64,000 bases of DNA from a virus. Under the pieces are notes generated by a model, which saw nothing but the letters and a program-made list of their open reading frames with translations, was not told the DNA's origin and made no database searches. Of the stretch, positions 8,151 to 60,354 are shown one piece after another (position 1 is the stretch's first letter; the number at the start of each line of letters is the position of its first letter). The stretch spans positions 1-64,000 of the IMG/VR virus record IMGVR_UViG_3300011116_000655; one strand, given 5' to 3'. A program made the position numbers and the translations under genes.

Positions 8151-8333
8151 CTATGCATCCCCAATAGGTTTCATCTGCTTTGTAACATAATCGTCAACAG
8201 CAATTTGAATTTCTTTCATAAGAGCTTTTTCACTTTCTCTTACTTCATCAAGATAATCCCACAACATATCATTTTCTTCTTGCAATTCTTTTACAAGTTC
8301 TTCAAGTTGTTTGATTTTCTTATCTTTATCCAT
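8151..8333 (-). CDS. Small coiled-coil protein
   Basis: Heptad-like pattern; coupled start. Confidence 0.6.
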   Translation of the reverse strand: MDKDKKIKQLEELVKELQEENDMLWDYLDEVRESEKALMKEIQIAVDDYVTKQMKPIGDA

Positions 8334-9169
8334 TAGTGCTGGCCTGTGTATTTTATCCTTATGTTTCTTCCACCTTTTCTGAATCTTCCAGTTGGTTCGC
8401 GAAGTCCAAAATTAGCAATCATAGTTTCAATGTTTTTCTTATCGTCGTCAGAGAAACCAATTTTTATCTTGGTTCCTTTAACAGCATGTTTTTTTACTCT
8501 TTTTGCTTCTTTGTTGACGTATTCAATAAAGTTATTTAATGCTTCAACTTTTAATTTTTCTGGCGAAGCAGCACTACCTTGACCAAACGAAACAGGTTCA
8601 AACTTACACATCCCAAGATAATCATCTATTAATTGATCTTCATTGTCTGTTGTTTGAACGTTGAATAGTTGTTTGTATTTTTTGATACTTTCCAAAACTT
8701 TAACTGTGCTTATTCCACCGAATCCAGATTGTATGTATCTTTTACAAGCTTGTTTAAGTGTATCTGGGTGGTGTCCTCTTGCAGTAATAATAGCAAAAAT
8801 TGATGCTCCTTCAACACATTCTTTAAAATCATTAAAAGATGGACCTATTTCTGCTTGTGGTAAATCATTTAAAAATTGTTGATCTCCTTCAACTCTAAAA
8901 TTTCTAAAAGGATTTGGAGCATAATCTTTTATTTTATGTCCTTCATAATCAAATTCTTCTTTTCCAATTAAATGTCTGTATTGTGCAAATGCATGTGTTG
9001 ACATACCAACTTCTTCACCATTTACATCAACAAGCATAATCTTTGTAGGCATGAATACTATGTTATCATCCCAATCAAATGCATAGTATTTTAGATCTGG
9101 TGTTCCTTCTTCGGTAAAACCTTCGTTGACGAAACCTCTCCAGTTTTTTAAGATACCTTCCATTATCAT
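8333..9169 (-). CDS. HAD-superfamily phosphatase-like protein
   Basis: Motif I FDWDDN, motif II ITARG, motif III K, motif IV GFSDDD; N-terminal 'NWRGFVNE' tag. Confidence 0.7.
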   Translation of the reverse strand: MIMEGILKNWRGFVNEGFTEEGTPDLKYYAFDWDDNIVFMPTKIMLVDVNGEEVGMSTHAFAQYRHLIGKEEFDYEGHKIKDYAPNPFRNFRVEGDQQFLNDLPQAEIGPSFNDFKECVEGASIFAIITARGHHPDTLKQACKRYIQSGFGGISTVKVLESIKKYKQLFNVQTTDNEDQLIDDYLGMCKFEPVSFGQGSAASPEKLKVEALNNFIEYVNKEAKRVKKHAVKGTKIKIGFSDDDKKNIETMIANFGLREPTGRFRKGGRNIRIKYTGQH

Positions 9170-12100
9170 TTTTTAATGTTCCTTAATAAACGTTTAAATC
9201 TTTCGTTAATAACTAGTCTCTTAGTTTTGTTTTCGGGCAATCTTTGATCTTTATACATTGGATTACCAGAAAACAATGGTCCTTCTGCTGGTGGTACAAG
9301 TGGTTGTTTTTCGTTTGGTGATGCAACAGAGGCTTGAATTCCTTGTGCAACTCTTTGTCTTTGTCTATCGTAAATAGAAACTACTTCTCCAGGTTGTACC
9401 GATAATTTTTCTTTTACTGTTTTATTAACTGCATCAGAACAAATCTTAATCATCTTTTGATAATTTTCTTCTTTACCTATTTTTTCAATAAAGTTTGTAG
9501 CATTAATTATCTGTTGTTCAGTTGTAAAGTTTTGGCTAATTTTAGCAGTTATTTTTGCTCTAACATTAAGATAATCTGCACCTTCTAATGCTCTTTGTAC
9601 ATCTGGTTCAATAACCATAATTCTAATTTCAAAACCTTCGTCTACTTGTGGTGTAATGTCTACGTTTTTTGTTTTTAATGGGTCTGGAGTTTGTACGCTT
9701 ATACCTTGTGGAGATCTGTTGTATGCATTTAAAATGTCTCTTTCTGCTCTCGATATGTTAATGGTAGAAAAGAGAGGTTTTTGTTTATTATCATATCGAT
9801 TAGCATTTAGGTTACTATCTCCAAATTCTTTATCAAATTCTTTATGTAACTCAAAAACATCAATAGTTCTCATTGTATCTACGATTTGCCTAATCATATC
9901 TCTTTTAAGTGCAAAATCTGAAATATGTACTCTTGCTGTGTTTACTGTTGTTGCTGGTTGCTCTTGGCTTGGTTTTGGTGTAGGAATTTTAGCTACAATA
10001 GGATAATTTGTTTCTACTGTTTCTCTTGCAGGATTCTCAACAATAATAAATTGGTCCCACTTACCTTCATCTGATTCAAGCCAAGCAGCATGACTTCCTG
10101 TAGATGATAAATCTTCTACAAATTTTTGAATCATATCTTGTACTTCTGGTTTTGAAATTGGTGGTTGGACAATAATACCAATGTTTCTAAAATGATTTAC
10201 AAATGCATCCCTAATGTCGTCTGTATAATCTAATTTATTTAATGATTCTCTTGCACCAACTAAATGCATTTCTATTGCACCAGAAGATGCGTGAGTATCC
10301 ATTATTAAAATTTGTATGTAGATTTGTGGTCCATTAAATAATTGAACATTTACATCAATTTCAGAAGAAGTAAATGCTGCTCTATCATCAACATTTCTCA
10401 ACATTGAATCAAATAAATACTTGAATTTTTCTACTACTTCTTGTTTTAAATACTCCGTTCCAAACACTTCATTCATTCTATCTTGATTAAATTGTATACC
10501 ATCATCTCTACGGTCAATTTGTATTTCAATAGTAATTTGTGAGGTTATTACATCGATTTCAAAATCATCATCGTCACATCGAACGTCTACAGTAACAGTT
10601 GCAAAATTGGCTCTTCTATCGAAGTATGACACTATCTGGTCTACATCATCTATAGCTGTTCTACAGGGCGCAGTTGCTTCATCTTGATCTTCATGACCTG
10701 TATAAGAAAGACCATAACTACTAAAACTGGCCTCCAAATTATCAACCGTTGCACTTAAATAATCTTTTTCTTCATTAGATTGAGAAATAAGTTTTGAAGC
10801 TTTGTCGATAGTTCTAATTAAACTCATACCAAGACCACGCATACCAGAATCACTATAAGAACCACCTCTTAGTTCAAGAGAATCTGCTTCATATGGTATG
10901 TAAAATTTTCCTTCATCATACTTTGCTTGTGGATCATTCATAAGTATTTTTGCTGTTTGTTGTGTTACCCACTTATTGACTGTATCAACAAATGAAACTT
11001 TGGCTTTACCATAAGTTCTTGTTTCTGGAGCCATGAAGTCAACATTTGTTTGATTATCAACAACTCTTCTAAGTCTCATTCTTGCTTCTGGTACAATACC
11101 TTGAATACCTCTTTGTGGGTCTGCGAAGATTTCTGTTGCATTTAAATCAACTTTATTTATGTCCTCAGTATTTACCAAATAAGCAATTGCTCCTTGGTTT
11201 CTGGCTTCTGCGAGGGCACAGTAAAAGTATTCACCACCTTCACGATGGCAAGAAGTCATACCTTTTGAAGCAAAGTCAGACATTCTAAGTACGTCGATAG
11301 GGGCACGAGAAATAAGAATTGATAAACTATTTGCTTGTGTATCTGTAACCTCGTTGAATCTTTGTTTAAGGTAATCTAACTCTTCATCTGCTTGAAACCA
11401 ATCCTTTTCTATCAATTCTTTAGCACCTTCAACAGCATCTTTGTCTTGTGAAAACTTTAATTGATTTTGTTGCCACCAATCAAAAAGTTCTTTTTCTTTA
11501 AACTTTTGTAATACTTGGCCTATTGTTGCTGTATAGCTTTTAACTGTGAAAGAACCATTGCCCCACCTGTCTGGATTTTCTTGTAAGAATTTTTCAATAA
11601 ATTCTTGCCCCATCATTGGATTGAGTGGTGTTTTAACTGTGTATTCAATTACAGGTTCATAATAAGTAACATCTTTTTCTTGAGGAGGACCACCACCAAG
11701 AGGAGTGAATTTTTGTTTAACAACATTTTGTCTTATGTTCAATGTATCAACGTTAAGAACTGGATAATTAAGCATACCATAACTATTCTTCATGTAAGAA
11801 GGTATTTTTTTTAAAAATTCTTCTGATTCTGCTTGTGACAGTTTACTAAAATCAAAATTTGGATCTTTGGTAAGGGATTTAAAAAGTCTTGTTCTATAAG
11901 CTCCTATTTTTTCAGTTGATTTTACATCTTGAAACAATAAGCTGGCACAAACTCTAATAAGTGCCGCAAGCTTTATCATTTTTGATTCATCATAAGGAAT
12001 AACTATTCTATCCCCTTGGTCACCAAAAAACAATTTAAAGTTATCATTTTTTCTTTCGGTAGCGGCAATAACAGCAGGCATGACGGCATTTATCCATCGC

Positions 12101-12204
12101 TGATTCATTTCCTTTAATAGTTTTTTGTTCTTAGTTTCTTTTTTTGATAAATCAGTTTGAGAAATCCATTTCTGCCAGTTATAATGGCTTGTACCTTTAG
12201 ACAT
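9166..12204 (-). CDS. 1012-aa protein, paralog of the neighbour, possibly virion-internal
   Basis: Shared core ISRAPIDVLRMSDF...SCH..GG.YFYCALAEA.N.GAIA. Confidence 0.75.
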   Translation of the reverse strand: MSKGTSHYNWQKWISQTDLSKKETKNKKLLKEMNQRWINAVMPAVIAATERKNDNFKLFFGDQGDRIVIPYDESKMIKLAALIRVCASLLFQDVKSTEKIGAYRTRLFKSLTKDPNFDFSKLSQAESEEFLKKIPSYMKNSYGMLNYPVLNVDTLNIRQNVVKQKFTPLGGGPPQEKDVTYYEPVIEYTVKTPLNPMMGQEFIEKFLQENPDRWGNGSFTVKSYTATIGQVLQKFKEKELFDWWQQNQLKFSQDKDAVEGAKELIEKDWFQADEELDYLKQRFNEVTDTQANSLSILISRAPIDVLRMSDFASKGMTSCHREGGEYFYCALAEARNQGAIAYLVNTEDINKVDLNATEIFADPQRGIQGIVPEARMRLRRVVDNQTNVDFMAPETRTYGKAKVSFVDTVNKWVTQQTAKILMNDPQAKYDEGKFYIPYEADSLELRGGSYSDSGMRGLGMSLIRTIDKASKLISQSNEEKDYLSATVDNLEASFSSYGLSYTGHEDQDEATAPCRTAIDDVDQIVSYFDRRANFATVTVDVRCDDDDFEIDVITSQITIEIQIDRRDDGIQFNQDRMNEVFGTEYLKQEVVEKFKYLFDSMLRNVDDRAAFTSSEIDVNVQLFNGPQIYIQILIMDTHASSGAIEMHLVGARESLNKLDYTDDIRDAFVNHFRNIGIIVQPPISKPEVQDMIQKFVEDLSSTGSHAAWLESDEGKWDQFIIVENPARETVETNYPIVAKIPTPKPSQEQPATTVNTARVHISDFALKRDMIRQIVDTMRTIDVFELHKEFDKEFGDSNLNANRYDNKQKPLFSTINISRAERDILNAYNRSPQGISVQTPDPLKTKNVDITPQVDEGFEIRIMVIEPDVQRALEGADYLNVRAKITAKISQNFTTEQQIINATNFIEKIGKEENYQKMIKICSDAVNKTVKEKLSVQPGEVVSIYDRQRQRVAQGIQASVASPNEKQPLVPPAEGPLFSGNPMYKDQRLPENKTKRLVINERFKRLLRNIKK

Positions 12205-14948
12205 TATTTTCTTCCTTTATTCTTCTTATACCAATTCAACAGTCTTTCTTTAATAATTCTTTTCTTTGCTTCTGTCAAATTTGTTTCAGATTTTTGTTGT
12301 TCTTCTTGTTCTGCTTCGTATCTTGTTTGGTAACCTCTTTGCTCTGGGGTACTTTGCATTGTATTTGGATTTTTACCTATTTCTCTTCTTACAATTTCAG
12401 AAATTGCGTTTGCAACAGTTTGTGGATTTTGTTCCAATCCCTCAATAAATGTTGCCATTTGTTGTACTGAAATTTTATCTATGTCAAAGTGTATTTTTAC
12501 TTCAGCATAAAGCCAATCTGTTTTATCTGATCGGTCGTAACCATAACCAAGTGTGCCTTCTTTATAGCGGTCAACAAGAAGATTAATTTGAAAAGTAATT
12601 CCATCTTTTAATGAATAGTTTGATGATTCTAATGATGTACTAAATGTGCCAATCCCTTGACTTGTACCACTATGTTTTTTAAAAGGAAAATCAAATTGTT
12701 GTTGTGTTGCAGATGGAAATTTTATTCTACCAGCTTCATCTTGAGATTCAAAACTTTGTGATACACCTAATGTTTGGCTTTGAAGTAATGGTCTAAAATA
12801 CTTATTAAAAATTGGGTCATTTAATAAATCATCAGCAATACGAATTGCAAAAGAAACCGCATAACCTTTAAATGCTTCTGATTGGCTTTGTGTAAGTTTA
12901 GCTATTAACCAGCTTCTCTTACCATAGTTTGTGTAAGCATCACCAGAAGATGATCTTCTCTTATCTGGCATAAAATCAAGGTCAATAATCTTGCCTCTTT
13001 GTTGTGCTACGAAATGCTCTGTATTTTCGTTTGTCCATCTTATTAAAGTGGTACGTTTTTGTGCTTCTGTTTCTATGTCAGTTGATTTCATGTATCCTGC
13101 TTCAACTAAAATGCTTACTATTTCACCCTCTAATTCTTCTTTGGAGTGTTCACGGGCAAAACGAGCAAGATCTTGCATTTCGACTCTGAAGTTGTCTGCA
13201 TCTGTATGATCATTTACATAGTGTAAGTCGATAGTTACAACGCCACTTGATTTTGTAACAAAAACTTCTTGTAGTGGAGCATCTGGATAAACCAAATTTC
13301 CACCAGAATCTCTGAATAATTCTTTCAACAATTCATCTAAGTTTTGTTCTCTTTCGTTCAAAAAGGTTTCAGTAAATTCACTTTCATCAAATTTTACTTT
13401 GAAAGAAACATCAAGGTTCATATCAGCATAACCTTCACCATACTGCCATTCAAAATTACAGGAGTGAGATAAATAACTGTTTACTACCGCACGAACACCT
13501 CTTAAGTATTCGTTTTCTGCTTCTTCTCTGGCAAATTCATCTTCATCATCATCGTCGTCACCTGTGTATTGTTTGTATTCTCTTTCTCTACCAGCATACT
13601 TAGGTCTATTATAGCCTGCTAATTGTTTAAATAATTCTTGTTGTTCTTCGGTTGGTTCTACACTTTCTTCTTTTTGTATTTGCTTAAACATTTGAAGTAG
13701 AGATTGACCAATAGGATTATCAAAATAAGAACCACCAAGAGTACTTAAATTATCAAAACGAGATGTAATGTTCAATTCTTTTGTACCATCATCGTTTGTT
13801 TTTACAAGAAGATCTTTTTGCATTTCGGTAACTGCTTTAAATACTTCTTGTTGAAAACCATTAAGTCTTTGGCTTGGATAAGTTCTTTTTTCTGGTACGC
13901 CAATAATAGTATCTTTATCATTATCTTTGAGTGCCCTAATACGAACTCTTTGTAGTGGTGTAATACCTTCAACCCCTTCTTGTTGATCAGCAAAGACTTC
14001 TGGTTTATTTAAGTCAAGACCTTGTAAATCTTCTGTTCGTACAGCAAACGCAATAGCACCTTCATTCTGTGCTTCTGCAAGGGCACAATAAAAATAGCTT
14101 CCACCAGATGAATGACAAGATTCTATGTCTTCTTCTGGGAAGTCTGACATTCTTAATACATCAATAGGGGCACGGGAAAGAACAATAGAATAATCATTGT
14201 TTTTTTCGCCTAATGTGGAATCATCTTCTGTTCCAAATTCTGTCCAACTACCATTTGTAAATCTGGTATTTCCTAATGTTGTTGCAAACTTAATAAGTTC
14301 TACGTCTTGAATAAGTTTTGATTGGTTTTTCTGCCACCAATCTGCCATTTTAGTTATTACATCAATTCTTTGTTTGGCATTTACTATTCTGGATTCATTT
14401 AACTCAATGTCCCACTTCATTGATTGTTTTTTAGACTCTTCGGTTTCTGAATCTCTTGCAGCGTTCAAAGCAGCTAATTTTGTTTCATGCTCTCGTAATT
14501 CTTGTTTTGTTACTACACCCAATTTTCTTAATGCATTTGCAACTGTTGTACTTGATTGCTTTAGTTGGTACTCGTAAGTTTTAGGATTTTGGATAGATTG
14601 TGTATAGGTTACAACAAAGTCAGCTATTTCTTGTGTTGTGTCTCTACCAGCTACTTTTGCTCTTACTTGTTTTACTTGATCTGTAATTTCTACACTTGTA
14701 CCCGCTGGTTGCATGTTATAAATAAAATCAAGTATTGTTTGTACTTTACCAATGTTTTTCTGAATAAATGGTATAGCAACTCTTAATTTATCACCAAAAA
14801 TGTCACTAAATGGTAATACTGATGGGTTCCTTGTAGCAACTTGGGTAGCATTATTAATCAATCTTCTGTAATGTTGCTCCATTTCGTTGATTTTTTGCTT
14901 GCCAACGAAATCTTTCCAATTGCCATAAAATAAATTTTTGTTGCTCAT
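12204..14948 (-). CDS. ~914-aa protein, paralog of the neighbour, possibly virion-internal
   Basis: Start reassigned to MSNKNL (AAGGA RBS, ACTAATTA upstream); same conserved core. Confidence 0.75.
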   Translation of the reverse strand: MSNKNLFYGNWKDFVGKQKINEMEQHYRRLINNATQVATRNPSVLPFSDIFGDKLRVAIPFIQKNIGKVQTILDFIYNMQPAGTSVEITDQVKQVRAKVAGRDTTQEIADFVVTYTQSIQNPKTYEYQLKQSSTTVANALRKLGVVTKQELREHETKLAALNAARDSETEESKKQSMKWDIELNESRIVNAKQRIDVITKMADWWQKNQSKLIQDVELIKFATTLGNTRFTNGSWTEFGTEDDSTLGEKNNDYSIVLSRAPIDVLRMSDFPEEDIESCHSSGGSYFYCALAEAQNEGAIAFAVRTEDLQGLDLNKPEVFADQQEGVEGITPLQRVRIRALKDNDKDTIIGVPEKRTYPSQRLNGFQQEVFKAVTEMQKDLLVKTNDDGTKELNITSRFDNLSTLGGSYFDNPIGQSLLQMFKQIQKEESVEPTEEQQELFKQLAGYNRPKYAGREREYKQYTGDDDDDEDEFAREEAENEYLRGVRAVVNSYLSHSCNFEWQYGEGYADMNLDVSFKVKFDESEFTETFLNEREQNLDELLKELFRDSGGNLVYPDAPLQEVFVTKSSGVVTIDLHYVNDHTDADNFRVEMQDLARFAREHSKEELEGEIVSILVEAGYMKSTDIETEAQKRTTLIRWTNENTEHFVAQQRGKIIDLDFMPDKRRSSSGDAYTNYGKRSWLIAKLTQSQSEAFKGYAVSFAIRIADDLLNDPIFNKYFRPLLQSQTLGVSQSFESQDEAGRIKFPSATQQQFDFPFKKHSGTSQGIGTFSTSLESSNYSLKDGITFQINLLVDRYKEGTLGYGYDRSDKTDWLYAEVKIHFDIDKISVQQMATFIEGLEQNPQTVANAISEIVRREIGKNPNTMQSTPEQRGYQTRYEAEQEEQQKSETNLTEAKKRIIKERLLNWYKKNKGRK

Positions 14949-14988
14949 TGTGTTTTCCTTATCGCAAGTAATTAGTTTTAGATACAAG

Positions 14989-18111: not shown

Positions 18112-19677
18112 TTATTGCTGAACAATGGAATAATTAGTTGTTATTAAAGTTCCTGCCGCTGATGCTGCATTTTGTATTGCACACCTTGTAACTTTAACGG
18201 GGTCGATAACACCAGCGTCCATCATCATAATAATTTTACGATGTAGGAAATCATAACCAGCATCAAATACTTCTGATTTAACCATAGATACAATAATGTC
18301 GGGAGATTCACCAGCATTTAGTGCCATTTGTCTAATTGGCTCTTCTGCTGCCCTAAGTACAATCTTGACTCCTAAAGCCTGTTCCTCGTTGTCTGTAGTC
18401 ACTTCTAGACCTTCTGTGGCTCTAATAAGTGCTACGCCACCACCTGGGACTATACCCTCTTGTTGGGCACTACGGACGGCTTCTAGGGCATCTTCAATAC
18501 GATGCTTCTTCTCAATCATTTCGACTTCTGTTGCAGCACCTACACGAATAATGCCAATACCAGAAGCAAGACGAGTAATACGCTCCTGTAAACGTTCACA
18601 TTCATACATATTCTCCGTCTGTTGTAGTTCTGCTTTGATGATATCGATTTGTCTATCAACTTCTTCCATACCACCATGACCGCCAACAATTGTAGTTAAA
18701 GACTTAGCAATCTCAATTTTCTTGGCTCTACCAAAATCCTTAAGTTTAACGTCAGACATTTTTGTGCCATTTTCTGTTGCAATAAAGTTTGCACCTACAG
18801 AGATAGCAAGATCTTTCATGATGTTTCTACGCTCTTCACCATAACGAGGAGCTTTAACTGCTGCAACCTTCATTGTGCCTCTCATAGCATTCATGATAAG
18901 CGCAGCAAGGGCTTGACCTTCAATTTCATCTGCAACAATTACAAATGGTTTTCCTTCTCTTGCAATAAGTTCAAGAACAGGTAGCATATCTTGTACAGAA
19001 TCAAATTTACGATCTGTTACAAGAATGTAGGGATCTTCATATTTAACTACACCCCTTCTTTCATCATTGATAAATGCTGATGCGAGATAGCCCGAATCGA
19101 AACGAAAACCCTCAACAATATCAAGAGAAGTATCGACAGAGCGTGCTTCTTCAATAGTAATCGAACCATCTTTACCTACCTTGTCTACAGCAGTAGCAAT
19201 TAATTTGCCAATTGTTCTATCGTTATTAGCAGAGATAGAAGCAACGTGTTCAATATCTTCTTCTGAAGAAATTGGTTTTGCAATCTGAGCCAAACGTGTG
19301 ACAACAGATTCTACTGCTTTATCAATACCTCGCTTTAGCTCAATAGGAGATACACCAGCAGTTAGGTATCGTTGAGCTTCACGAAGAATAGCTCGCGAAA
19401 GAACAACAGATGTAGTAGTACCATCACCAGCAAGTGTGGCTGTTTGTTGTGAGGCTTGTTTGATTACTTGCGCCCCTAGATTCTCAAATGGGTCAGACAA
19501 CTCAACAAAATTAGCTACAGTTACACCATCTTTTGTAATGATTGGTGTTTTGCCTTTCTCTTGAAGAATTACATTTCTGCCTCTTGGGCCTAATGTTGAA
19601 GATACATTATCTGCCAATACATTAGCACCCTTCAATAATGCTTCGGACAAAGTACGTCCATCACAATACTGTTTCAT
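18112..19677 (-). CDS. groL: Chaperonin GroEL
   Basis: TLGPRGRNV, ITKDGVTVA, AGDGTTT, GIVPGGG, VIDPVKV; no GGM tail. Confidence 0.97.
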   Translation of the reverse strand: MKQYCDGRTLSEALLKGANVLADNVSSTLGPRGRNVILQEKGKTPIITKDGVTVANFVELSDPFENLGAQVIKQASQQTATLAGDGTTTSVVLSRAILREAQRYLTAGVSPIELKRGIDKAVESVVTRLAQIAKPISSEEDIEHVASISANNDRTIGKLIATAVDKVGKDGSITIEEARSVDTSLDIVEGFRFDSGYLASAFINDERRGVVKYEDPYILVTDRKFDSVQDMLPVLELIAREGKPFVIVADEIEGQALAALIMNAMRGTMKVAAVKAPRYGEERRNIMKDLAISVGANFIATENGTKMSDVKLKDFGRAKKIEIAKSLTTIVGGHGGMEEVDRQIDIIKAELQQTENMYECERLQERITRLASGIGIIRVGAATEVEMIEKKHRIEDALEAVRSAQQEGIVPGGGVALIRATEGLEVTTDNEEQALGVKIVLRAAEEPIRQMALNAGESPDIIVSMVKSEVFDAGYDFLHRKIIMMMDAGVIDPVKVTRCAIQNAASAAGTLITTNYSIVQQ

Positions 19678-19721
19678 AAAAACTCCGTGTAAATGTTAAT
19701 GTAATCTTATTTTATTAAGTG

Positions 19722-20933: not shown

Positions 20934-20951
20934 GATACTAAATAGTCGAAG

Positions 20952-21647: not shown

Positions 21648-21660
21648 TTATACCTCTTTG

Positions 21661-22044: not shown

Positions 22045-22055
22045 GTTACCTCAAA

Positions 22056-22104: not shown

Positions 22105-22126
22105 CTTTATTAATTTATTTTATTTA

Positions 22127-22696
22127 TCAGACTAATCTACGAATAACACGTTTGAGGACTTCATTTATAACTTCATCATCTGTGAGGATTTCAATACCTT
22201 CTTCAAGTTTTTCATCCTCTTCGGCGGGTTCGGCAGGTTCATCACCCCCTTCATCGCCTCCCTCCATGCCGAGATCCATTTCCTCTTCTTCGCCTTCGCC
22301 ACCCATTTCATCAGCTAATCCAAGGTCTTGAAGGGCATCCATTACTGCATCTTTAATAACACTTTTTAAATCTTCAACTGAATCAAACTCTACTTCACCT
22401 TCGCCTTCCATACCTTCTTCTGGTTCCATGACAGAAGGCTCTTCCATATCCATATCTGCACCATCACCCATTTCGCCCATGCCCATGCCCATGCCTTCTG
22501 GTTCTTCCATTGCGTCCATACCCATTTCTTGAGGTTCGTCTTTACGGGCATAACTGGCACCGCCATACATTTCTTTTAATACTTTTTTACTTTTCTTATT
22601 TTCTGTAAGGAAATTTTCTGTTGCATTTTTGTCAATGTTAGCAAGTTTCATCCACTTTGCTACTTGACTTTCTGATAATAAAGGTTTCTTGCTCAT
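22127..22696 (-). CDS. Acidic Met/Gly/Glu-rich protein, scaffold or internal-head-like
   Basis: LLSESQVAKWMKLANI N-terminus; acidic low-complexity core; amphipathic C-terminal helix; late motif upstream. Confidence 0.6.
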   Translation of the reverse strand: MSKKPLLSESQVAKWMKLANIDKNATENFLTENKKSKKVLKEMYGGASYARKDEPQEMGMDAMEEPEGMGMGMGEMGDGADMDMEEPSVMEPEEGMEGEGEVEFDSVEDLKSVIKDAVMDALQDLGLADEMGGEGEEEEMDLGMEGGDEGGDEPAEPAEEDEKLEEGIEILTDDEVINEVLKRVIRRLV

Positions 22697-22754
22697 TTGT
22701 ATTGCTCCTACACGAATAAATAGTGTCTAAATTATAAAAATACTTTTTTTTTGA

Positions 22755-29312: not shown

Positions 29313-30101
29313 TCAATGGTTTCTTTTCTTATTTTCTCTCATACCTTTATCAAGTGCAAGCGTTCCGTATTGTTGTCCACCTATTCTTGCTCGTAATGCA
29401 TCCATACCAGCATCTTGAGAAACTGGGCCTAAAGATGCTTGCTGAGAACGACTTGATTGTGTAGAAGCCACATTTTGTGGATTTGTTGGTTCTGGAACTT
29501 TTATGTTCAATACATTTTCGTATTTTTGAATTTCACTTCTATCTAATGTAGGACCAGAAACTTTTCTCATTTCGTGCGCCTCAGAAGAAAATTGTTGTCC
29601 TTTTTCTGCTCTTTTTATAGAAAGAGGAAATACTTCTATAGTATACCCTTTATCATATCTTTTAGCATGGTTGTAGTAAAAGACTATTACTTTTTTTGTT
29701 TTCATTTCAGAAATGTATGTTTCTAATCTTTGTATAGCTAGTTGTTTATTTTCATCATTTTTTGCAATTTTTATTTTGTTGTTGTAGTCATCTAAATCAA
29801 ACTCATAATCTATTAAAAATTCTCTTAATGGTAAAGGAATTAAGTTTGCTTGTTTTTTTTGAATCATTTCTCTAAATTTTGGAAAAAGATTTATAATTTG
29901 AGCACCTGTTACGGATAACAATTCTTCTTTTTCTCCAAGTTCTGAACCTGCTTCACTTACTTCGACTTCCGTATCTATAACTGGTTGGTTTCTTGGTGAT
30001 CCATAAATTGGACCTCTTTCAAAAGGGCTAATTTCATTTAGCAATCCAACAAGTTCTTCTCTAATAACTTGTCTAAGTTGTGATTCTGTTAATCTTTTCA
30101 T
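29313..30101 (-). CDS. Hypothetical protein with 'LTESQLR' N-terminal tag
   Basis: MKRLTESQLRQVIREEL; late motif upstream. Confidence 0.7.
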   Translation of the reverse strand: MKRLTESQLRQVIREELVGLLNEISPFERGPIYGSPRNQPVIDTEVEVSEAGSELGEKEELLSVTGAQIINLFPKFREMIQKKQANLIPLPLREFLIDYEFDLDDYNNKIKIAKNDENKQLAIQRLETYISEMKTKKVIVFYYNHAKRYDKGYTIEVFPLSIKRAEKGQQFSSEAHEMRKVSGPTLDRSEIQKYENVLNIKVPEPTNPQNVASTQSSRSQQASLGPVSQDAGMDALRARIGGQQYGTLALDKGMRENKKRNH

Positions 30102-41581: not shown

Positions 41582-42598
41582 TTACCAAGCTCTGCAAGAC
41601 CAATAACGAGCTTTTGTTTTTGGTCCTGGGTTATCGCAATTATGTCTTGCTCTAAAAGATTTACGTCTTCCTGGTATGTTCTTTTTAATCTTCATGTTCT
41701 TATCGCCAAAGTTTACTTTTTTAACATTACCAGTTTTTGGATCTCGTACATAAACTTTGGATTTTTTAACATCACCTTTCATTGGTTTATTAAGGGTTAC
41801 TGTGCGACCTTGGTATTTTGCTTCTTGAATTATTGTTCTCTGACTTTCCAATAACTCTTGAAGGCAACCAGCGCAAACAAGTGTTCCATCGTCTAAATGG
41901 GCATCATCGTATTCTGTTGATTCAGAAACTACTTGCGCTCCGCTTTGTTGTAGTTCTTGACCAGTATCTGTAATAAACTTTGTTAAATCTCCTACTTTTG
42001 CTAAAGTAAGAGAATTTTTTAAATGTGTTACAAGTTCAAGTGCGTCTTTAAGTGAAACTAAGTTATTAGTCATACGTGCATTTGCTAAATTTGCTAAAAT
42101 CATACTAGACAAAACAATAGTAGCAGATGCACCAGTAAATCTATTAAAACCTTTTGTTAAATCACCACCACCTAATTTAGTAAGACCTTTTTGTGCCGCA
42201 GACAAAACAGCTTCAGTTGTTTTATAAATTGGTCCTGGTTTTTTTGCCTCTTGAATTTGAGTAAGCAATAATTTAGCATTTTGTGCAGCTTCAATTGGAT
42301 CATCATCTTGTAATACATTTTTCAACAAATAATCTATTGCTGCATCAATTTCTTTTTTAGAAATAAATGCTTGTAACTGACGGATAACACTTGGGTCACT
42401 AATAGACTTTCTTGTGTTATCAGATGGTCCTGGTTTCACAACTTTTTGGTTACTGAGAGCAATAATTTTTTGGATTGGGGTTTGTTGAGGAGCAACAGCT
42501 TGTGGTTGTTGTTGTGGGGCGGCTTGTTGTTCATTTAAATAAGTTCTCCAACCTTCCATTAAAAGTTGTTGATTTTGAAATGATGAAAATTTAGTCAT
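41582..42598 (-). CDS. Tagged late protein with C-terminal basic module
   Basis: LMEGWRTYLNE N-terminus; KKVNFG...RRKSFRARHNC...ARYWSC. Confidence 0.75.
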   Translation of the reverse strand: MTKFSSFQNQQLLMEGWRTYLNEQQAAPQQQPQAVAPQQTPIQKIIALSNQKVVKPGPSDNTRKSISDPSVIRQLQAFISKKEIDAAIDYLLKNVLQDDDPIEAAQNAKLLLTQIQEAKKPGPIYKTTEAVLSAAQKGLTKLGGGDLTKGFNRFTGASATIVLSSMILANLANARMTNNLVSLKDALELVTHLKNSLTLAKVGDLTKFITDTGQELQQSGAQVVSESTEYDDAHLDDGTLVCAGCLQELLESQRTIIQEAKYQGRTVTLNKPMKGDVKKSKVYVRDPKTGNVKKVNFGDKNMKIKKNIPGRRKSFRARHNCDNPGPKTKARYWSCRAW

Positions 42599-42605
42599 AA
42601 CTTAA

Positions 42606-43478
42606 TTAGTCCTTTTTCTTCTTTTTAGTCCATGAAATTGGCTTAGATGATTGTTTTTTTCTTAATGGACCTTTACCAGCAGATTTACATTGTGCTTTTG
42701 TTGGTCTACAAGCTGGATACTTGCCACCACTATCTGCGGAGCTTCTACCACATGGACCACCAGTTCTACAATTTATCCAACCTTTTCCTTTATTACGAGC
42801 AAACCAACCATGAAGTCCTTGTTCTTTTTCTTTAGAGAAGTTTGGTTTGTATGGCTTTTTCTTTTTGGCTTCATCTAATTCTTCTTCAATTATTTCTATG
42901 TCACCAAGGTCTATTTCTTCATTCTTTTTTTTTCTGCCTTGACAATGTGCCCTTTGAGAAAAACCTTTTGGATTTTTGCAATTGATAGAACGTTTGTACT
43001 TTTCAGACCATTCTTCTTCAAGTACCTCTATTTCTTCTAAAACTAGTTGTTGATCTATTTCTTCATCTGTTGCATTCTCAGAAATACCTTTCCAGATCTT
43101 TCCTTGACGGCATTTAACAACAGCACCAGAAGCATAAGCAGAAGGCCAAACATCATATTTACGTTTGGCAATTCTTGTGCAACGATCACCACTTTTTTTC
43201 TTTTTTGCTTCTTGAAGATTTGAAAGAAATTGTTGTATTTTTGGTTTAATGTCAGCAGCAGTAATGCCTTTTTGTTTAGCACTTGCAACAACATTTTTTA
43301 TGTCATTTTCTATTGCATCAACTGCTATCTGTATTTCATTATCTTTTTTTTCTGCTGGAGATAAATCTTCTGGCTTTACTTTAGCTTGTTGATTTGTGTT
43401 TGTAGTTTGTTGTACAGAAGCTGTATCTGCTTCTTGCAAAAATTGTTTCCAACTCTCTAAAATTAAATTATATTTCAT
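42606..43478 (-). CDS. Tagged late protein built of small basic Cys modules
   Basis: Start reassigned to MKYNLILESWKQFLQE; WPSAYAS, CKNPKGFSQRAHC and PCGR...YPACRP modules. Confidence 0.75.
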   Translation of the reverse strand: MKYNLILESWKQFLQEADTASVQQTTNTNQQAKVKPEDLSPAEKKDNEIQIAVDAIENDIKNVVASAKQKGITAADIKPKIQQFLSNLQEAKKKKSGDRCTRIAKRKYDVWPSAYASGAVVKCRQGKIWKGISENATDEEIDQQLVLEEIEVLEEEWSEKYKRSINCKNPKGFSQRAHCQGRKKKNEEIDLGDIEIIEEELDEAKKKKPYKPNFSKEKEQGLHGWFARNKGKGWINCRTGGPCGRSSADSGGKYPACRPTKAQCKSAGKGPLRKKQSSKPISWTKKKKKD

Positions 43479-49305: not shown

Positions 49306-49674
49306 CTACTTTAGTAATTCTTTAATAACCTCTTTTACAATTTCTTCAAGAAGGTTTTCTTTCATGTGTTTAAAGTATTGTACTTGTTTTTCTCTTTTTT
49401 CTGCACCTTTTCTAGAATCATAACAGCCAAGATTCTTACCACTCTTTTTTGATTTCAAACAATACTTAGAACCTTGTTTAACAATGTGTTCACCAATAGG
49501 AGGAGCAGATTTAGAACGTTCCATAGATGGTTTTTCACTATAAGGGGCACCAGCGGGTTGATTGCCATGACCAATAACTCTTTTCTTTTTACGACTGTGC
49601 CCTGCCTTCATCTTTCTCTGAAAAGGCTCTGTCTGTTCTAATAAGTCTCTAAGTTGTTGTACTAAAGGGTCCAT
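49306..49674 (-). CDS. Basic modular protein with C-terminal amphipathic tag
   Basis: SKKSGKNLGCY..R..AEKRE.QV.YFKH; LLEEIVKEVIKELLK. Confidence 0.65.
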   Translation of the reverse strand: MDPLVQQLRDLLEQTEPFQRKMKAGHSRKKKRVIGHGNQPAGAPYSEKPSMERSKSAPPIGEHIVKQGSKYCLKSKKSGKNLGCYDSRKGAEKREKQVQYFKHMKENLLEEIVKEVIKELLK

Positions 49675-50031: not shown

Positions 50032-50664
50032 TTATCTCCTATCTTTTGTTGTTATGTCAGCACCATGAACCGCTGTAATCAACGCCAAAGTAAGACACAT
50101 AAGAGCAATAGCTAAACTTAGATTTTGTTTGTCTTGAGCTTTTACTGCTTTATTTAATTCTTGGTTTTTTTCAATATATAATTCTATATCATTTTTAAAT
50201 TTTTGACCTTCTGGCGATCTCATAAATTTATCTACTTCACTTGATTTACCACTTGGATCAAGACTGACAAACCTTTTTGCTTGTTCTATTAAACTGTTAT
50301 CTATTGTGGTTTTAATGCCTTTATAAATTAATTGTTTATTATCAACATCAAATTTAATATTTGGGCTTAAGCTTTCAATGTATTTTTTAGATAATACTGG
50401 AAGCTGCTCTTTATCTACTTGAGATGCACCAATTGTCCTGGCTACTTGAGCTATCGCTGGACCTCCAGATAATGCTTCATCAGATTGGTTTATAGCTGTA
50501 CCTAATGAAGCTCCACCACCAAATGCAACAGCTAATGGAAAAGCAAATTTAGCAAATAATTGTCCAAGTCTTCCTTCGTTTAAAAGATCTGGATTATTTT
50601 CACTTAATACTTCTAAAAGTTCTTGTCTAACTATAAGTCTTAATTGTGATTCTGTTATAATCAT
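50032..50664 (-). CDS. 'ITESQLR'-tagged protein with two hydrophobic segments
   Basis: MIITESQLRLIVRQEL; late motif upstream. Confidence 0.7.
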   Translation of the reverse strand: MIITESQLRLIVRQELLEVLSENNPDLLNEGRLGQLFAKFAFPLAVAFGGGASLGTAINQSDEALSGGPAIAQVARTIGASQVDKEQLPVLSKKYIESLSPNIKFDVDNKQLIYKGIKTTIDNSLIEQAKRFVSLDPSGKSSEVDKFMRSPEGQKFKNDIELYIEKNQELNKAVKAQDKQNLSLAIALMCLTLALITAVHGADITTKDRR

Positions 50665-50702
50665 TATAAAATTTTCCTTTAATTTACTTACACAATAAAT
50701 AG

Positions 50703-51845
50703 TTAAATCTTACGCATTTCACCGTAATTACTTCCTGCTTTCACGTTTACTTTAAACATCCCAAGGTCAGTATTGGAATAAATCTTCATAATTTTTTTTA
50801 GGTCTTTTTTATCTTCGTCTGCAAGATCAATCACAATGTTGTCATGAATAGTAAAAGCAATAAAAGATTTACGACCTTTTAGAAACTGAAACACTTTAAT
50901 CATCTGACGAAGAGCAAGCTGACCAAATGTAGACTGAACAATGTAAGAAAGAGCATGATGATTATCTGCTGAAATTTGTAAGCCGTAGAACGTAGTAACC
51001 TTTTCTCCATCCCAAAATCTATTAAGTACTTCTTCTTTATTGTAAATCGATTCAGCCTTTTCATTTTTAGTATCTCCATAAAGCCATGCAAGAAATGCTA
51101 CTTTTGCTTCATCCCTTGTTTTCTTGTTATCAAAAATGTGTTGATTATTCCAATCGTGAATATCTTCTTTGGGTTGTGGCTTTCCTGCAAGAGCAAGAAA
51201 CGTTCTAAGTTCTGCTCCGTTATAATCAAGCTCAACAAACCAATCATTTGTAGGATGGATAATAGAACGATGATTCTTATCCATCTGCATTATTGGGAAT
51301 GAACGTTTATGGGTTGATAGTCTACCTGTCTTTGTTCCAAAAATGTCATAGTTAATAAATCTACTAATGTTTGAATACTTTTGGATTATCTTTTTATCTT
51401 CCACACCATCCAACACAACATTCAATGGTCTACTTTTAATGTCCCAAAGAACTTCTGATAATTTAACGAGATAATCATAATCTTTTGGCTTTGCAACCGT
51501 ATTTAGAATGTGTTCAACAATTTTTGTTTTGACTTCATAATAAGTCATAAGAAACTTGTGTGGAATCATTTCAAATAAACAATTATCATCAAGATTAATT
51601 TTAGCATTTGAGAAAGATTTAAAATAAGCTTTCATCTTATCATTAACAAGTTTCCAATCATCTTTTGCATTATCTGGACAAAACTTATTAATTTCATCTT
51701 GGCAATACAAATAAGCATAATCACCACCATTAAAGGATGGATGATAACTCCAAGATTTTACATAATCTGGTAAATTTTGAATTATTTCATTTTGACAATA
51801 AAAGCCCACACACTCGCCTTTATTATCAAGAGGTTCAACAAACAT
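50703..51845 (-). CDS. Compact family-A DNA polymerase domain
   Basis: TGRLS, motif A LDYNGAELR, motif B R..AK...L..LYG, motif C IHD. Confidence 0.8.
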   Translation of the reverse strand: MFVEPLDNKGECVGFYCQNEIIQNLPDYVKSWSYHPSFNGGDYAYLYCQDEINKFCPDNAKDDWKLVNDKMKAYFKSFSNAKINLDDNCLFEMIPHKFLMTYYEVKTKIVEHILNTVAKPKDYDYLVKLSEVLWDIKSRPLNVVLDGVEDKKIIQKYSNISRFINYDIFGTKTGRLSTHKRSFPIMQMDKNHRSIIHPTNDWFVELDYNGAELRTFLALAGKPQPKEDIHDWNNQHIFDNKKTRDEAKVAFLAWLYGDTKNEKAESIYNKEEVLNRFWDGEKVTTFYGLQISADNHHALSYIVQSTFGQLALRQMIKVFQFLKGRKSFIAFTIHDNIVIDLADEDKKDLKKIMKIYSNTDLGMFKVNVKAGSNYGEMRKI

Positions 51846-59191: not shown

Positions 59192-59193
59192 TT

Positions 59194-60336
59194 TTAAACC
59201 TCACTATTCTTTATGTTTGCTAAGACTTTCCAACGGTTTATAATTGATTCTGATAAATGGTCAGGTCTTTGCTCCCTTGATTTAGTATGTATTAATCTAA
59301 GTACTTCACTAGCTAAATTTTCTAATTGTCCAATTTTTTGCTTAAGTAAGTTTTTTTGTTTAAATAAATTAAGACTTGGTTTTTTAAATTCTTTTAAATC
59401 TGGTTCTAATTTATTTGTTATTAAAGTTTCAATGTCTGTATTTCCATCAATAATACTCTTGATTATAAGCAGTTTAATTTCTAATCCTAATAAAAATAAA
59501 TACTTACCCTCTGGTGTTTCATTTGATTTAGCTCTTAGTCTTTTATAATTTAATCCTCCAATAAGAGTACCTAGACTAATTGTACCTAAAAGGATAGATA
59601 AACCAGTAATTGGATCTAACACTTCAGACACAAGACCAGCAAGATCATTAGCAAGATCTTGTCTTCTTTGCTGTTTTCTTTGATCCATAAAAATCTTATC
59701 TGATAATTGTTGAATTTTATTTTCAATTTGTTCATAAACAGATTTAAAATTTTGGTTAGATTTTAAAAATTCAACTGTTTTTTCAACAAAATTTATAAGA
59801 TTGTTTTGATCTCTAAAATCAACATAATTTTGTACTTGAGACAATAAATCTACATAGTTAATTTCATCTGATACTTCCTCTACAGGTACTGGCGTTGCAG
59901 CCTCCTCTGTTGGTGCATCTTCTGGACCTAAAGGTACAGTTATTGCAGTTGTAGAAGTTGATTGACCTTTTTTCTTTTGTTCTTCGTTATAAGCTAAAGT
60001 ATTTAAAGTAGAAAAAATTGGTGATGTTTTAGGTATAGGTAAGCCTATACCATTAGGTAACCAGCCACCATTTGCATTTGCTTTGTATTTAACATCCTTT
60101 AATTGAATTTCTGTTCCTATTTCTGGTTTCCAGTTGGAAGGTACAGTACCTTTTGGTTTGGTTTCTTCTGGTTCTTGTTGTGATTGAGAAGATTCAGTAT
60201 CAGTAACAGGAGTTTCTTCTTTAGGTGATTTAGACTTTATTTTAGTTTGTGGGTTATAATAACTTCTAATTGCTTGCGTACCAGCAGCGGCAGTACCAGC
60301 TTTTGTTTTTTGTTCTTTTATTATTATCTTTATCAT
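59194..60336 (-). CDS. Tagged late protein inserted in the tail operon
   Basis: Own late motif 5 nt upstream; TM segment; C-terminal ESIINRWKVLANIK. Confidence 0.7.
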   Translation of the reverse strand: MIKIIIKEQKTKAGTAAAGTQAIRSYYNPQTKIKSKSPKEETPVTDTESSQSQQEPEETKPKGTVPSNWKPEIGTEIQLKDVKYKANANGGWLPNGIGLPIPKTSPIFSTLNTLAYNEEQKKKGQSTSTTAITVPLGPEDAPTEEAATPVPVEEVSDEINYVDLLSQVQNYVDFRDQNNLINFVEKTVEFLKSNQNFKSVYEQIENKIQQLSDKIFMDQRKQQRRQDLANDLAGLVSEVLDPITGLSILLGTISLGTLIGGLNYKRLRAKSNETPEGKYLFLLGLEIKLLIIKSIIDGNTDIETLITNKLEPDLKEFKKPSLNLFKQKNLLKQKIGQLENLASEVLRLIHTKSREQRPDHLSESIINRWKVLANIKNSEV

Positions 60337-60354
60337 GTTATTAAATAGTTTATT

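Follow-up and report, generated by a model that had tools for sequence, protein, structure and literature searches.

Three families of short terminal peptides, termed W, T and S, recur on unrelated proteins of an uncultured marine T4-like phage (a "Far-T4" myovirus), and they probably serve as clip-off address tags through which passenger proteins enter a T4-type prohead during its assembly. The window analysed here covers the first 64 kb of an IMG/VR contig that is 77.9 kb long and about 43% complete. Portability of the tags across unrelated cargo is strongly supported, and a link to head assembly is supported by the S tag copying the end of the scaffold, by the co-occurrence of the leaders with an S77 protease, and by a promoter-like motif common to tagged genes and virion genes. 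By analogy with phage T4, the tagged proteins would be expected to be packaged, cut after Glu and delivered at infection. The phage itself has a gp23-type MCP and a gp22-type scaffold. The S77 protease gene is absent from the 77.9-kb contig, probably because the contig stops about 2 kb before it; judging from relatives, the source phage presumably encodes it.

The three families were picked out by profiles made only from other contigs (Table 1; ORFs are named by their first coordinate). The W family, hLxxW(R/K)x(F/Y)(L/V)xE, is carried by ORFs 8333, 41582 and 42606 and the paralogs 9166 and 12204 have degenerate versions of it. The T family, M..(L/I)TESQLRxhhRxEL, is found on ORFs 29313 and 50032, while the S family, (R/K)(W/M)xxLA(G/N)I, marks 22127 at its N-terminus and 59194 at its C-terminus, both being weaker matches with LANI in place of LAGI. 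Each leader is a charged amphipathic helix with a protease motif at the end: the W, T and S leaders finish in hydrophobic-x-Glu, the cut site of T4 gp21. Hydrophobic-x-Glu is in itself a common tripeptide.

Table 1. Tagged genes and cargo in the window, with promoter-like motifs upstream
Feature	Position	Strand	Basis	Upstream motif
W-leader (MIMEGILKNWRGFVNE) of ORF 8333-9169	9122..9169	-	external W profile, E 0.005	
8333 cargo, predicted HAD-fold phosphatase	8333..9121	-	model and structure comparison	
Degenerate W-like start (..HYNWQKWISQ) of giant ORF 9166-12204	12157..12204	-	regular expression match, not profile	
Degenerate W-like start (MSNKNLFYGNWKDFV) of giant ORF 12204-14948	14898..14948	-	regular expression	ACTAATTA at 14969-14976
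S-like N-terminal module (..LLSESQVAKWMKLANIDKNATENFLTE) of acidic ORF 22127-22696	22601..22696	-	motif inspection; no profile match	ACTATTTA at 22717-22724
T-leader (MKRLTESQLRQVIREELVGLLNE) of ORF 29313-30101	30033..30101	-	external T profile, E 1.5e-7	ACTATTTA at 30123-30130
W-leader (..LLMEGWRTYLNE) of ORF 41582-42598, then Gln/Pro-rich linker	42530..42598	-	external W profile, E 0.002	ACTAATTA at 42603-42610
W-leader (MKYNLILESWKQFLQE) of ORF 42606-43478	43431..43478	-	external W profile, E 0.03	ACTACTTA at 43484-43491
Basic 122-aa protein, C-terminal amphipathic helix, operon of 50032	49306..49674	-	weak candidate; (L/I)xE z = 3.2	
T-leader (MIITESQLRLIVRQELLEVLSENNPDLLNE) of ORF 50032-50664	50575..50664	-	external T profile, E 1e-7	ACTATTTA at 50696-50703
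S-like C-terminal tag (HLSESIINRWKVLANIKNSEV) of ORF 59194-60336	59197..59259	-	second in scaffold-end profile, E 0.43, marginal	ACTATTTA at 60342-60349

The analysis confirmed the shared terminal motifs, which are strictly position-specific. The pattern W[RKQ]x[FYW][LIV] occurs five times in 24,428 aa, every time within the first 30 residues; shuffling gives an expectation of 0.18 in the N-terminal 35 aa, and five or more were reached in 0/300 shuffles. Similarly, all three occurrences of [LI][TS]ESQ lie at residues 3-7, a result matched by 0/300 shuffles. The external profiles were searched against all 1112 six-frame ORFs of the contig. A genome-wide profile search of protein termini had been suggested with the original prediction, and it separated the W and T ORFs cleanly from the remainder, the next best matches having E values of 7 (W) and 3.4 (T). 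The scaffold-end profile ranked the scaffold first (E 7.5e-5), ahead of the 59194 C-terminus. In the same search, the terminal motifs of ORFs 9166, 12204, 22127 and 49306 matched none of the tag profiles. Shuffling, external profiles and scans of IMG/VR exclude a chance origin for W, T and S.

Each motif quoted in the original prediction was found at the gene end named, on the minus strand, and the true start is the ATG at 43478 for ORF 42606 and the ATG at 14948 for ORF 12204. The grouping changed in several respects. Wxx(F/Y)xxE starts are borne out by profile for 8333, 41582 and 42606, but those of 9166 and 12204 end without the final Glu. The proposal that unrelated ORFs share tags holds for the W, T and S cargo, but 9166 and 12204 are paralogs of each other (39% identity over 241 aa); they had moreover been described as giant Cys proteins, and with 6/1012 and 4/931 Cys they are not Cys-rich. 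Of the (L/I)(T/S)ESQ class, 29313 and 50032 stay, whereas the 'LSESQ' of 22127 is assigned to the S module. This class and the C-terminal end of 59194, previously listed apart, belong together, since the Flavobacterium phage immuto carries a joined module, RMQxLAGI-ITESQ. The other C-terminal amphipathic ends that had been put forward (9166, 12204, 22127 and 49306) are generic-looking helices without statistical support as a class, and the membership of 49306 in the tagged set is tentative. These ends, and possibly the degenerate starts of 9166 and 12204, could be chance occurrences of a generic amphipathic helix cap: no profile matches the ends, the terminal patterns were defined after the fact, and when all pairs of termini are compared, chance is estimated to yield a few with 9/17 identity. 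Such an explanation is nevertheless very improbable, as it is excluded for the W, T and S tags, the giant proteins have a G001 homolog (1226 aa) that begins with a genuine W-leader, MTNFFKKWREYINE, and ends in a similar C-terminal helix, and the S77 proteases of the clade terminate in a similar helix too.

The claim that the tags are portable was confirmed far beyond the window, as hundreds of viral contigs, like the window, have the same leaders on unrelated cargo, in every case at the very end of the protein. The W-leader has 105 instances at 40 IMG/VR loci, where it begins 1-3 residues past a start codon; the cargo is 37-1226 aa long, and sequences diverge directly after the Glu. Complete relatives have arrays of adjacent W-tagged genes (11 in G001, 10 in G016) with only the W-leader in common, and the tagged cargo of G001 includes NUDIX and nucleotidyltransferase enzymes. 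Conversely, one cargo may carry several leaders. The 8333 family has 2022 homologs, and its members bear W, short basic or long leaders, at least three types within this family alone, nearly all ending Phi-x-E and then Gly. Of 77 distinct leaders in this family, 76 have a hydrophobic P3 and 67 have Glu at P1, with most of the remainder shifted by one; Gly comes next. Likewise, the C-terminal cargo domain of 41582 (phrog_7595) has other leaders in immuto and G006 and a W-leader in G016, and the basic Cys-bearing core of 42606 has homologs in immuto and G006 with different short leaders ending LSE or LDE. In the T family, the leader is the sole stretch common to 29313 and 50032 and ends LLxE, then Gly. 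The 50032 cargo has two TM-like segments; among the homologs of ORF 50032, residues 1-19 hardly vary and the remainder is 36-48% identical or unalignable.

In the AlphaFold model of 8333, the leader lies outside the globular domain with pLDDT below 50, and the cargo has a mean pLDDT of 86.7. On structure comparison (VIA-align, Z 10.8 to 5uj0 and 9.8 to 1ltq over 132 residues), the modelled cargo appears closest to the 3'-phosphatase domain of T4 polynucleotide kinase-phosphatase (Pnkp-like). Residues D32, D34, T129, K207, D241 and D242 are invariant in the family. No Pfam domain was found in this cargo, and neither it nor the W-leader was found in any cultured phage.

It might be argued that the shared gene starts merely reflect cassette shuffling, with recombination at conserved 5' ends, or a constraint on translation initiation, the peptide itself being functionless. 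The tagged genes are indeed dispersed inserts, each behind its own promoter-like motif, and mobile regulatory cassettes are on record in T4-type genomes (PMC2839356). However, where residues are identical, their codons agree in only 172 of 346 pairs, and no relationship is seen in the upstream DNA, which indicates selection at the level of the peptide. Furthermore, leaders are conserved far above their cargo, and the same peptide is also found at C-termini (scaffold, 59194 and the L008, L025 and L033 loci) and once internally, before a domain. This explanation is thus scarcely credible.

The S family supports a link between the tags and the head. Its motif is the extreme scaffold C-terminus in almost all of 80 related loci, it also ends the scaffolds of immuto, G006 and G016, and L358, A359 and G360 are invariant in a scaffold alignment that is 28% identical overall. 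The N-terminal form, ..RMQxLAGIITE(S/G), lies no more than 45 aa from the first start codon in 94/98 cases. L025 and L033 encode proteins with an S-type C-terminal end between protease and scaffold, and the S77 protease is present in every contig at least 90% complete with W or S leaders, as well as in 20 head-module loci. Additionally, LTE9-G, LLE34-G, LLE50 and LRE59 are invariant in the N-terminal region of the MCP. Within the window, gene 59194 is a variable insert between a tail chaperone and the tape-measure homolog 57023; the 595-aa ORF at the same position in L008 has only its last 16 residues in common with it (81% identity). A tape-measure role for 59194 itself was rejected, the homolog being the neighbouring 57023. 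The 22127 motif is flanked on both sides by Phi-x-E sites, and the syntenic G001 homolog starts ..LLNEATIRRFQKLANMNVLSE.

Gene 22127 lies two genes upstream of ClpP, and GroEL adjoins it as well and is found in all four genomes compared; together with the position of 59194 among tail genes, this could suggest that the peptides are docking helices for a partner outside the capsid interior, such as the phage GroEL, another assembly chaperone, a ClpP-like degradation machine or a host factor. This is unlikely, given that ClpP was not found in the complete S-leader genomes immuto and G006, that the S motif is a conserved scaffold end with S-tagged genes between protease and scaffold, that the charged amphipathic leaders end in a protease motif, and that the array layout matches T4 internal-protein genes. 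It is likewise unlikely that tagged proteins enter the prohead as auxiliary core or scaffold parts, like T4 gp67 and gp68, to be degraded and expelled at maturation instead of reaching the host as effectors. ORF 22127 does resemble T4 gp67, a helix with an acidic tail, in that a low-complexity region of extreme acidity follows its tag, and the gene is part of a conserved module that includes ClpP and GroEL. Moreover, 42606, 41582 and 49306 have numerous (L/I)xE sites, like T4 gp22; the excess is clear in 42606 (z = 3.5), 49306 and 41582 and was not found by the same count in 8333, 9166 and 59194. However, much of the cargo consists of folded enzymes, here the putative HAD phosphatase and in G001 the NUDIX and nucleotidyltransferase enzymes, which would be odd for a scaffold, and the variation of cargo sets between close relatives fits essential assembly parts poorly.

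The promoter-like motif points to head assembly as well. ACTA[TAC]TTA occurs 24 times on the coding strand vs 5 on the opposite strand and is also located upstream of scaffold, sheath, tube and neck genes. Its co-occurrence with the tags, suggested earlier as a check, is pronounced: it lies 12-50 nt upstream of 7/10 tagged vs 10/91 other genes (Fisher p = 1e-4).

The closest known counterpart is in T4, where IPI, IPII, IPIII and Alt carry a CTS removed by the prohead protease gp21 (Mullaney and Black 1996, reviewed in PMC9026906, PMC5694885). In the CTS MKTYQEFIAE, residues 4 and 7 are needed for targeting and 8 and 10 for processing. Both systems have a short N-terminal peptide common to unrelated, fast-evolving proteins, with aromatic-x-x-aromatic-hydrophobic-x-Glu, its Glu being the cut site, equal in spacing to W-x-x-(F/Y)-(L/V)-x-E. 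The genes often form variable arrays with only the leader in common, the gp23-type MCP, gp22-type scaffold and S77 protease (the last in relatives) are shared, and T4 gp23, cut at LTE65, is comparable to the MCP described above with its LTE, LLE and LRE sites. The likeness is one of pattern, with no detectable sequence homology of the leaders to MKTYQEFIAE. In contrast to T4, the W-leader has 14 residues, at least three leader families occur together in one phage, the S family copies the scaffold's own C-terminal end and is used at either terminus, the cargo includes ~1000-aa and TM-like proteins, and the system is known from sequence alone. Encapsulins, which work without scaffold, protease or DNA, load cargo by C-terminal peptides that dock inside an HK97-fold shell, whereas the tags here would belong to a DNA-packaging virus. 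P22 capsids are loaded by fusing cargo to the scaffold protein (PMC9962691). A short terminal peptide, scaffold-derived or shell-docking, thus suffices to bring foreign cargo inside, but the P22 system is engineered and the present tags would be natural and removable. The ejection proteins of SPN3US and phiKZ have N-terminal propeptides of 80-275 residues (PMC5694885); here too a gp21-like protease processes head-internal proteins at x-x-Glu, N-termini are conserved among paralogs and some mature proteins have TM segments, but the long propeptides are not common to unrelated proteins and the capsids have no recognised gp22 scaffold. Finally, PeSLs, mobile promoter-stem-loop cassettes of T4-type genomes (PMC2839356), also accompany small function-unknown genes that sit as insertions between conserved ones and have a regulatory element apiece. 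They are DNA-level repeats with early promoters, whereas here a peptide is the shared element and virion genes have the same promoter-like motif.

In the address-tag mechanism proposed here, the tag would be a short amphipathic helix that binds some part of the scaffold core or of the inner shell. Being a copy of the conserved C-terminus of the gp22-like scaffold, the S tag would dock on whatever site the scaffold tail uses. A hydrophobic-x-Glu site would join each tag to its cargo, and the gp21-type (S77) prohead protease would cut there at maturation, freeing the cargo inside the head. The proposed passengers are the Pnkp-like HAD phosphatase, two ~1000-aa proteins, two basic Cys-bearing proteins, two with TM-like segments and one acidic core-like protein. 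Once freed, such cargo may be ejected into the host.

Three families of short terminal peptides, W, T, and S, recur in the proteins of this phage. In 24,428 residues, the motif W[RKQ]x[FYW][LIV] occurs five times, always in the first 30 residues of a protein, and [LI][TS]ESQ three times, always at residues 3–7; the terminal counts of both motifs were reached by none of 300 shuffles. As the patterns had been picked after seeing the data, profiles made from other contigs alone were run against all 1112 six-frame ORFs of the contig. The W profile retrieved 41582 (E 0.002), 8333 (E 0.005), and 42606 (E 0.03), with the next best ORF at E 7, and the T profile retrieved 50032 (E 1e-7) and 29313 (E 1.5e-7), with the next best at E 3.4 (ORFs are named by their lower coordinate, the tagged ones all being on the minus strand). 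The scaffold-end (S) profile found the scaffold (E 7.5e-5) and, marginally, the C-terminus of 59194 (E 0.43; next best E 1.4). The profile scan suggested in the original prediction hence separates the W and T tags from the 1112 ORFs, and by shuffles and external profiles the shared terminal motifs are real for all three families. The tagged proteins of the window have only their tags in common, except for the paralogs 9166 and 12204, so that their description as unrelated ORFs stands for most and fails for this pair. These two giant ORFs, taken to be Cys proteins, are not Cys-rich, and their W motifs are only degenerate. The ORF starts of 42606 and 12204 are corrected to the ATGs at 43478 and 14948, respectively. 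The remaining C-terminal amphipathic ends lack statistical support as a class, and it is only for these helices that chance is a live explanation. None of the ten tagged ORFs was assigned to an informative family by Pfam or PHROGs.

The window covers the initial 64 kb of an IMG/VR contig of 77,869 bp, which is ~43% complete according to CheckV and has nearly all its genes on the minus strand. Its nearest cultured phages are the 'Far-T4' myoviruses Flavobacterium phage immuto, Microcystis phage Mel-JY01, and Rhodothermus phage RM378, with an identity of only ~49% in the major capsid protein (MCP), and megablast with 22 kb found no match among cultured phages; at least 598 closer relatives are present in IMG/VR. 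The contig also encodes sheath, tube, and baseplate genes. The partial family A polymerase ORF adjoins tail genes; the phage has a DnaE-type polymerase as well, and the PolA genes of immuto are likewise split. The tiny ORFs near the beginning of the window, with F(Q/K)(I/V)G(D/E) at or near their start, resemble small paralogous domains more than tags. The paralogs beyond the scaffold lie between it and the genes expected for protease and portal; the protease is much nearer to the scaffold in most relatives.

Locations of the main features on the contig (the window shares its numbering) and at relatives' loci
Feature	Location	Strand	Remarks
gp23-type MCP	contig 68360-70123 (L001:8360-10123)	-	PF07068
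Coiled-coil scaffold, gp22-type	contig 70142-71236		19 nt upstream of MCP
Tandem paralogs	contig 71516-77768 (L001:11516-17768)	-	3 of ~335 aa, 34-40% identical, then 3 ORFs with a common C-terminal domain
DnaE-type polymerase	contig 30144-33563		
Partial PolA ORF	window 50703-51845	-	380 aa; PF00476 (family A DNA polymerase) match limited to C-terminal part
Conserved module	window 18112-22696	-	22127 (acidic, S-tagged), 21661 (small TM), 20952 (ClpP homolog with acidic N-terminal extension), 19722 (403-aa unknown), 18112 (GroEL); syntenic in relatives G001 and G016
Tiny ORFs	window 84-1197 and 4731-4910	-	at least 7, 53-85 aa
730-aa ORF of G001	G001 22410-24602 (L096:2410-4602)	-	two W-leader copies
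immuto35A_203	L002:5582-6823		upstream of immuto MCP
Small gene right after the prohead protease	L087:959-1411	-	homologs in 23 loci

The W tag recurs in relatives. In the complete 185-kb genome G001, 11 adjacent genes at 22.4–33.2 kb all open with MKxL(F/L)ENW(R/K)x(F/Y)LxE and are divergent afterwards, and the complete genome G016 has 10 adjacent W-tagged genes. To these variable (hyperplastic) arrays corresponds the homologous cluster 8333-14948 of the window, the other tagged genes being dispersed, and the giant ORFs 9166 and 12204 match the W-tagged 1226-aa gene of G001. A restrictive back-translated W pattern was found in 40 IMG/VR stretches, against fewer than one estimated by chance; in these the W profile detected 105 tags, each 1–3 residues past the start codon and followed by a cargo (the remainder of the tagged protein) of 37–1226 aa. 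Cassette shuffling, in which the peptide itself has no role, is a rival explanation for such a distribution. Only 172 of 346 pairs of identical W-tag residues share a codon, and there is no relationship between the upstream DNA sequences; the conservation is therefore at the peptide level. The insensitive tblastn of a 24-aa W-leader against cultured phages gave no match.

The MCP propeptide (residues 1–60) contains a helix, ALLxKWExTGLLEG with invariant W27, whose hydrophobic register, like that of LLNKWKPLLE in T4 gp23, is as in the W-leader LLFENWRKYLxE. Homology of the W-leader to this N-terminal helix was considered for the same register and rejected, as the W profile gives the MCP no score; for this reason, imitation of the MCP propeptide by the W tag is only a lead.

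The tagged genes are also distinguished by their upstream regions. The motif ACTA[TAC]TTA, which we infer to be a late promoter, has 24 copies on the coding strand versus 5 on the other and precedes the scaffold, sheath, tube, and neck genes by 12–50 nt. At the same distance it precedes 7 of the 10 tagged genes versus 10 of 91 others (p = 1e-4), which upholds the proposed co-occurrence of motif and tag. The tagged genes with the motif include 41582, 42606, and 29313, which are embedded among replication genes.

The S tag matches the tail end of the scaffold, which is directly upstream of a gp23-type MCP, rich in coiled coil, and conserved at its C-terminal end, as a gp22-type scaffold should be; Pfam and PHROG searches gave no match for it. 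Among 80 related loci, nearly all have (D/E)R(M/W)xxLAGI(K) at the end of the ORF upstream of the MCP, behind residues that vary, and the phage's own scaffold ends with ..ERMQRLAGIKNK. An alignment of 39 scaffold sequences, 28% identical overall, has L358, A359, and G360 invariant and a conserved P-x-S-L-S-E-A site ~35 residues before this LAG. The immuto scaffold ends with ..SRWQKLAGIIK; the ORF in question, immuto35A_203, is annotated as 'DNA polymerase phi-like protein' and, from its position and conserved ..RWQKLAGIIK end, is probably a mis-annotated gp22-type scaffold. Two small immuto proteins, immuto35A_42 and immuto35A_187, start with ..QILSEQF(K/R)RMQxLAGIITES(Q/E). Since these starts contain both motifs, the (L/I)(T/S)ESQ class and the first of the C-terminal amphipathic ends, originally listed as separate, merge into one module. 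A back-translated M-x-x-LAGIITE pattern matched at least 120 viral stretches, and the motif lies at most 45 residues from the first start codon in 94 of 98 ORFs; among cultured phages, tblastn matches of the immuto S-leader protein were confined to immuto phages.

In the window, an S-type module LSESxxxxWxxLANI forms the start of the acidic protein 22127 and the end of 59194. Both are weaker LANI-type variants, and the 22127 copy was detected by no profile. They are supported by the syntenic G001 homolog of 22127, which opens with ..LLNEATIRRFQKLANMNVLSE, and by a close relative (L008) in which the place of 59194 is taken by another protein, of 595 aa, that has only the last 16 residues in common with it (81% identity). 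Between prohead protease and scaffold, loci L025 and L033 encode proteins (467 and 753 aa) whose C-terminal end is of the S type. The possibility that 59194 is the tape measure, which would count against a head role, was discarded, as the homolog of the tape measure is ORF 57023, and 59194 represents a variable insert. Complex prediction with the MCP (alignment A1) and the C-terminal 69 residues of the scaffold (A2) gave a score of 0.00, which was counted neither for nor against binding. According to a rival explanation, the peptides dock to another shared partner, e.g., GroEL, and homologs of GroEL and ClpP are both encoded on the contig.

The T tag, M(K/R)ITESQLRxIIREEL, was found at 16 IMG/VR loci, in each case at the extreme N-terminus, and several of these loci have a scaffold with an S-type end; LTESQ and ITESQ are also present in T4 gp22 and gp21. 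Homologs of 50032 are virtually invariant over their first 19 residues, and the remainder is 36–48% identical or unalignable, the leader ending with LLxE before a Gly at ~residue 30. The W leader ends with VNE in 8333, LNE in 41582, and LQE in 42606, such an end being absent in 9166 and 12204, and every W leader of G001 and G016 ends with a hydrophobic residue, any residue, and Glu. The 8333 family comprises 2022 uncharacterised proteins. Its 77 distinct leaders (W-type, short basic, and long) have a hydrophobic residue at P3 in 76 cases and Glu at P1, directly before the presumed cut, in 67, followed by Gly; most of those without Glu at P1 are shifted by one position. In G016, the cores of the 42606 and 41582 cargo stand behind a W-leader, and in immuto and the relative G006 behind other short leaders ending with LSE, LDE, LKE, or LQE. 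Invariant sites in the MCP propeptide region are LTE9-G, LLE34-G, LLE50, and LRE59, and the cut site of T4 gp23 is LTE65. Judged from sequence, a candidate prohead-protease site, (L/I)-x-Glu, ends the tag peptide except in 9166 and 12204. A general enrichment of (L/I)xE across all tagged proteins proved only partly true: in a composition-corrected comparison of 72 proteins, the MCP, 42606, 49306, 41582, and the scaffold are within the top six, and 8333, 9166, and 59194 have no excess.

The gp21-type (Peptidase_S77) prohead protease is absent from the phage's own incomplete contig. It is present in genomes G001–G004, in 20 head-module loci at 3–9 kb upstream of the MCP, and in every contig of at least 90% completeness bearing W or S leaders. 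In L008 the gene after the protease is 8.6 kb upstream of the MCP, and from this spacing and synteny the phage's own protease is expected just past the contig end. S77 proteases end in a DRINRALNEIL-type helix resembling the scaffold end. The small gene right after the protease starts with MKKxELKxxLKPLIKxCIKEVLxEE and then Gly, a T-like helix with the same hydrophobic-x-Glu-Gly junction as in the tags. ClpP was rejected as the head protease, as it forms a separate module and relatives have both proteases, with S77 located in the head module. The S tag as a ClpP degron was likewise rejected, as immuto and G006 have S leaders without ClpP.

Regarding cargo, Pfam gave no match for 8333, tblastn with the protein matched only uncultured huge phages, and Foldseek with its model against the PDB gave nothing at E <= 0.001, so that a wider VIA search was needed. 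The modelled core has a mean pLDDT of 86.7, and the tag (pLDDT <50) lies outside the domain. With VIA-align, Pnkp-type 3'-phosphatase domains came first (Z scores of 10.8, 9.9, and 9.8), ahead of numerous HAD enzymes; the best matches belong to T4 polynucleotide kinase-phosphatase and Pnkp1. There is no variation at the catalytic residues D32-x-D34, T129, K207, and D241-D242; position five of motif I is Asn, not Thr or Val. With a Rossmannoid fold and four catalytic motifs, the 8333 cargo is a predicted HAD-superfamily phosphatase, as had been proposed. The W-tagged cargo of G001 includes a NUDIX hydrolase and a nucleotidyltransferase domain (PF01909, phrog_36119). The latter directly follows a second, internal W-leader copy (residue ~477) of the 730-aa ORF, which also has an N-terminal W-leader and represents either two tagged genes that have fused or a polyprotein that the prohead protease cuts. 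Segments resembling TM segments are present in 50032 and 59194, and TM segments have been reported for a giant-phage ejection protein. In a rival explanation, the tagged proteins would serve as auxiliary components of the core, without delivery to the host.

Internal proteins of T4 have a capsid targeting sequence (CTS) that is clipped by gp21 (Mullaney and Black 1996; reviewed in PMC9026906 and PMC5694885). In this peptide, MKTYQEFIAE, targeting depends on residues 4 and 7 and processing on residues 8 and 10; a change of Glu to Asp prevents trimming in T4 and leaves loading intact. The W tag has equal spacing (aromatic-x-x-aromatic-hydrophobic-x-Glu), but the likeness is limited to the spacing of residues 4, 7, 8, and 10, since ten residues allow no alignment statistic, and homology cannot be claimed. 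One feature of the CTS system, a short terminal peptide common to otherwise unrelated proteins, is found in the window and in relatives. By analogy, a CTS-like system with several address peptides is the most economical reading. A protease site would join each address peptide to its cargo, the S peptide would borrow the scaffold's own docking end, and the tagged proteins would be packaged, cleaved, and ejected. Engineered P22 scaffold fusions and encapsulin loading peptides are among the closest analogues of such a tag system. Literature searches found no paper describing W, T, or S leaders: concept searches gave work on T4, SPN3US, P1, and P22, and motif-string searches only noise. Similarly, no virion proteome of a cultured carrier was found in the searchable literature. 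As a cultured carrier exists in Flavobacterium phage immuto (MW353176), the prediction is directly testable.

A bolder proposal, which we consider possible but rather doubtful, is that marine and freshwater T4-like phages use a natural modular packaging code of interchangeable address peptides, with a multi-enzyme load injected with the DNA as a counter-defence arsenal. One address peptide may copy the scaffold tail and one may have the register of the MCP propeptide helix (LLxKW..LLE). At least a dozen enzymes could be carried per virion, including nucleic-acid 3'-phosphatase, NUDIX, nucleotidyltransferase, and membrane-active proteins. Such an arsenal would be first-strike and fast-evolving. 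Any new gene could be recruited simply by exchanging a leader of 15 residues. If the leaders are head-loading tags, they would provide natural, ready-made tags for capsid cargo loading and a pointer to the scaffold-shell contact site in T4-type proheads. Moreover, a simple sequence rule could predict virion-internal, probably injected proteins among unknown phage genes, and the proteins so predicted would be prime candidates for anti-defence effectors. The CTS principle of T4 would then not be peculiar to T-even coliphages; it would represent an ancient, widespread, and diversified system of environmental T4-type phages, with one of its tags derived from the scaffold.
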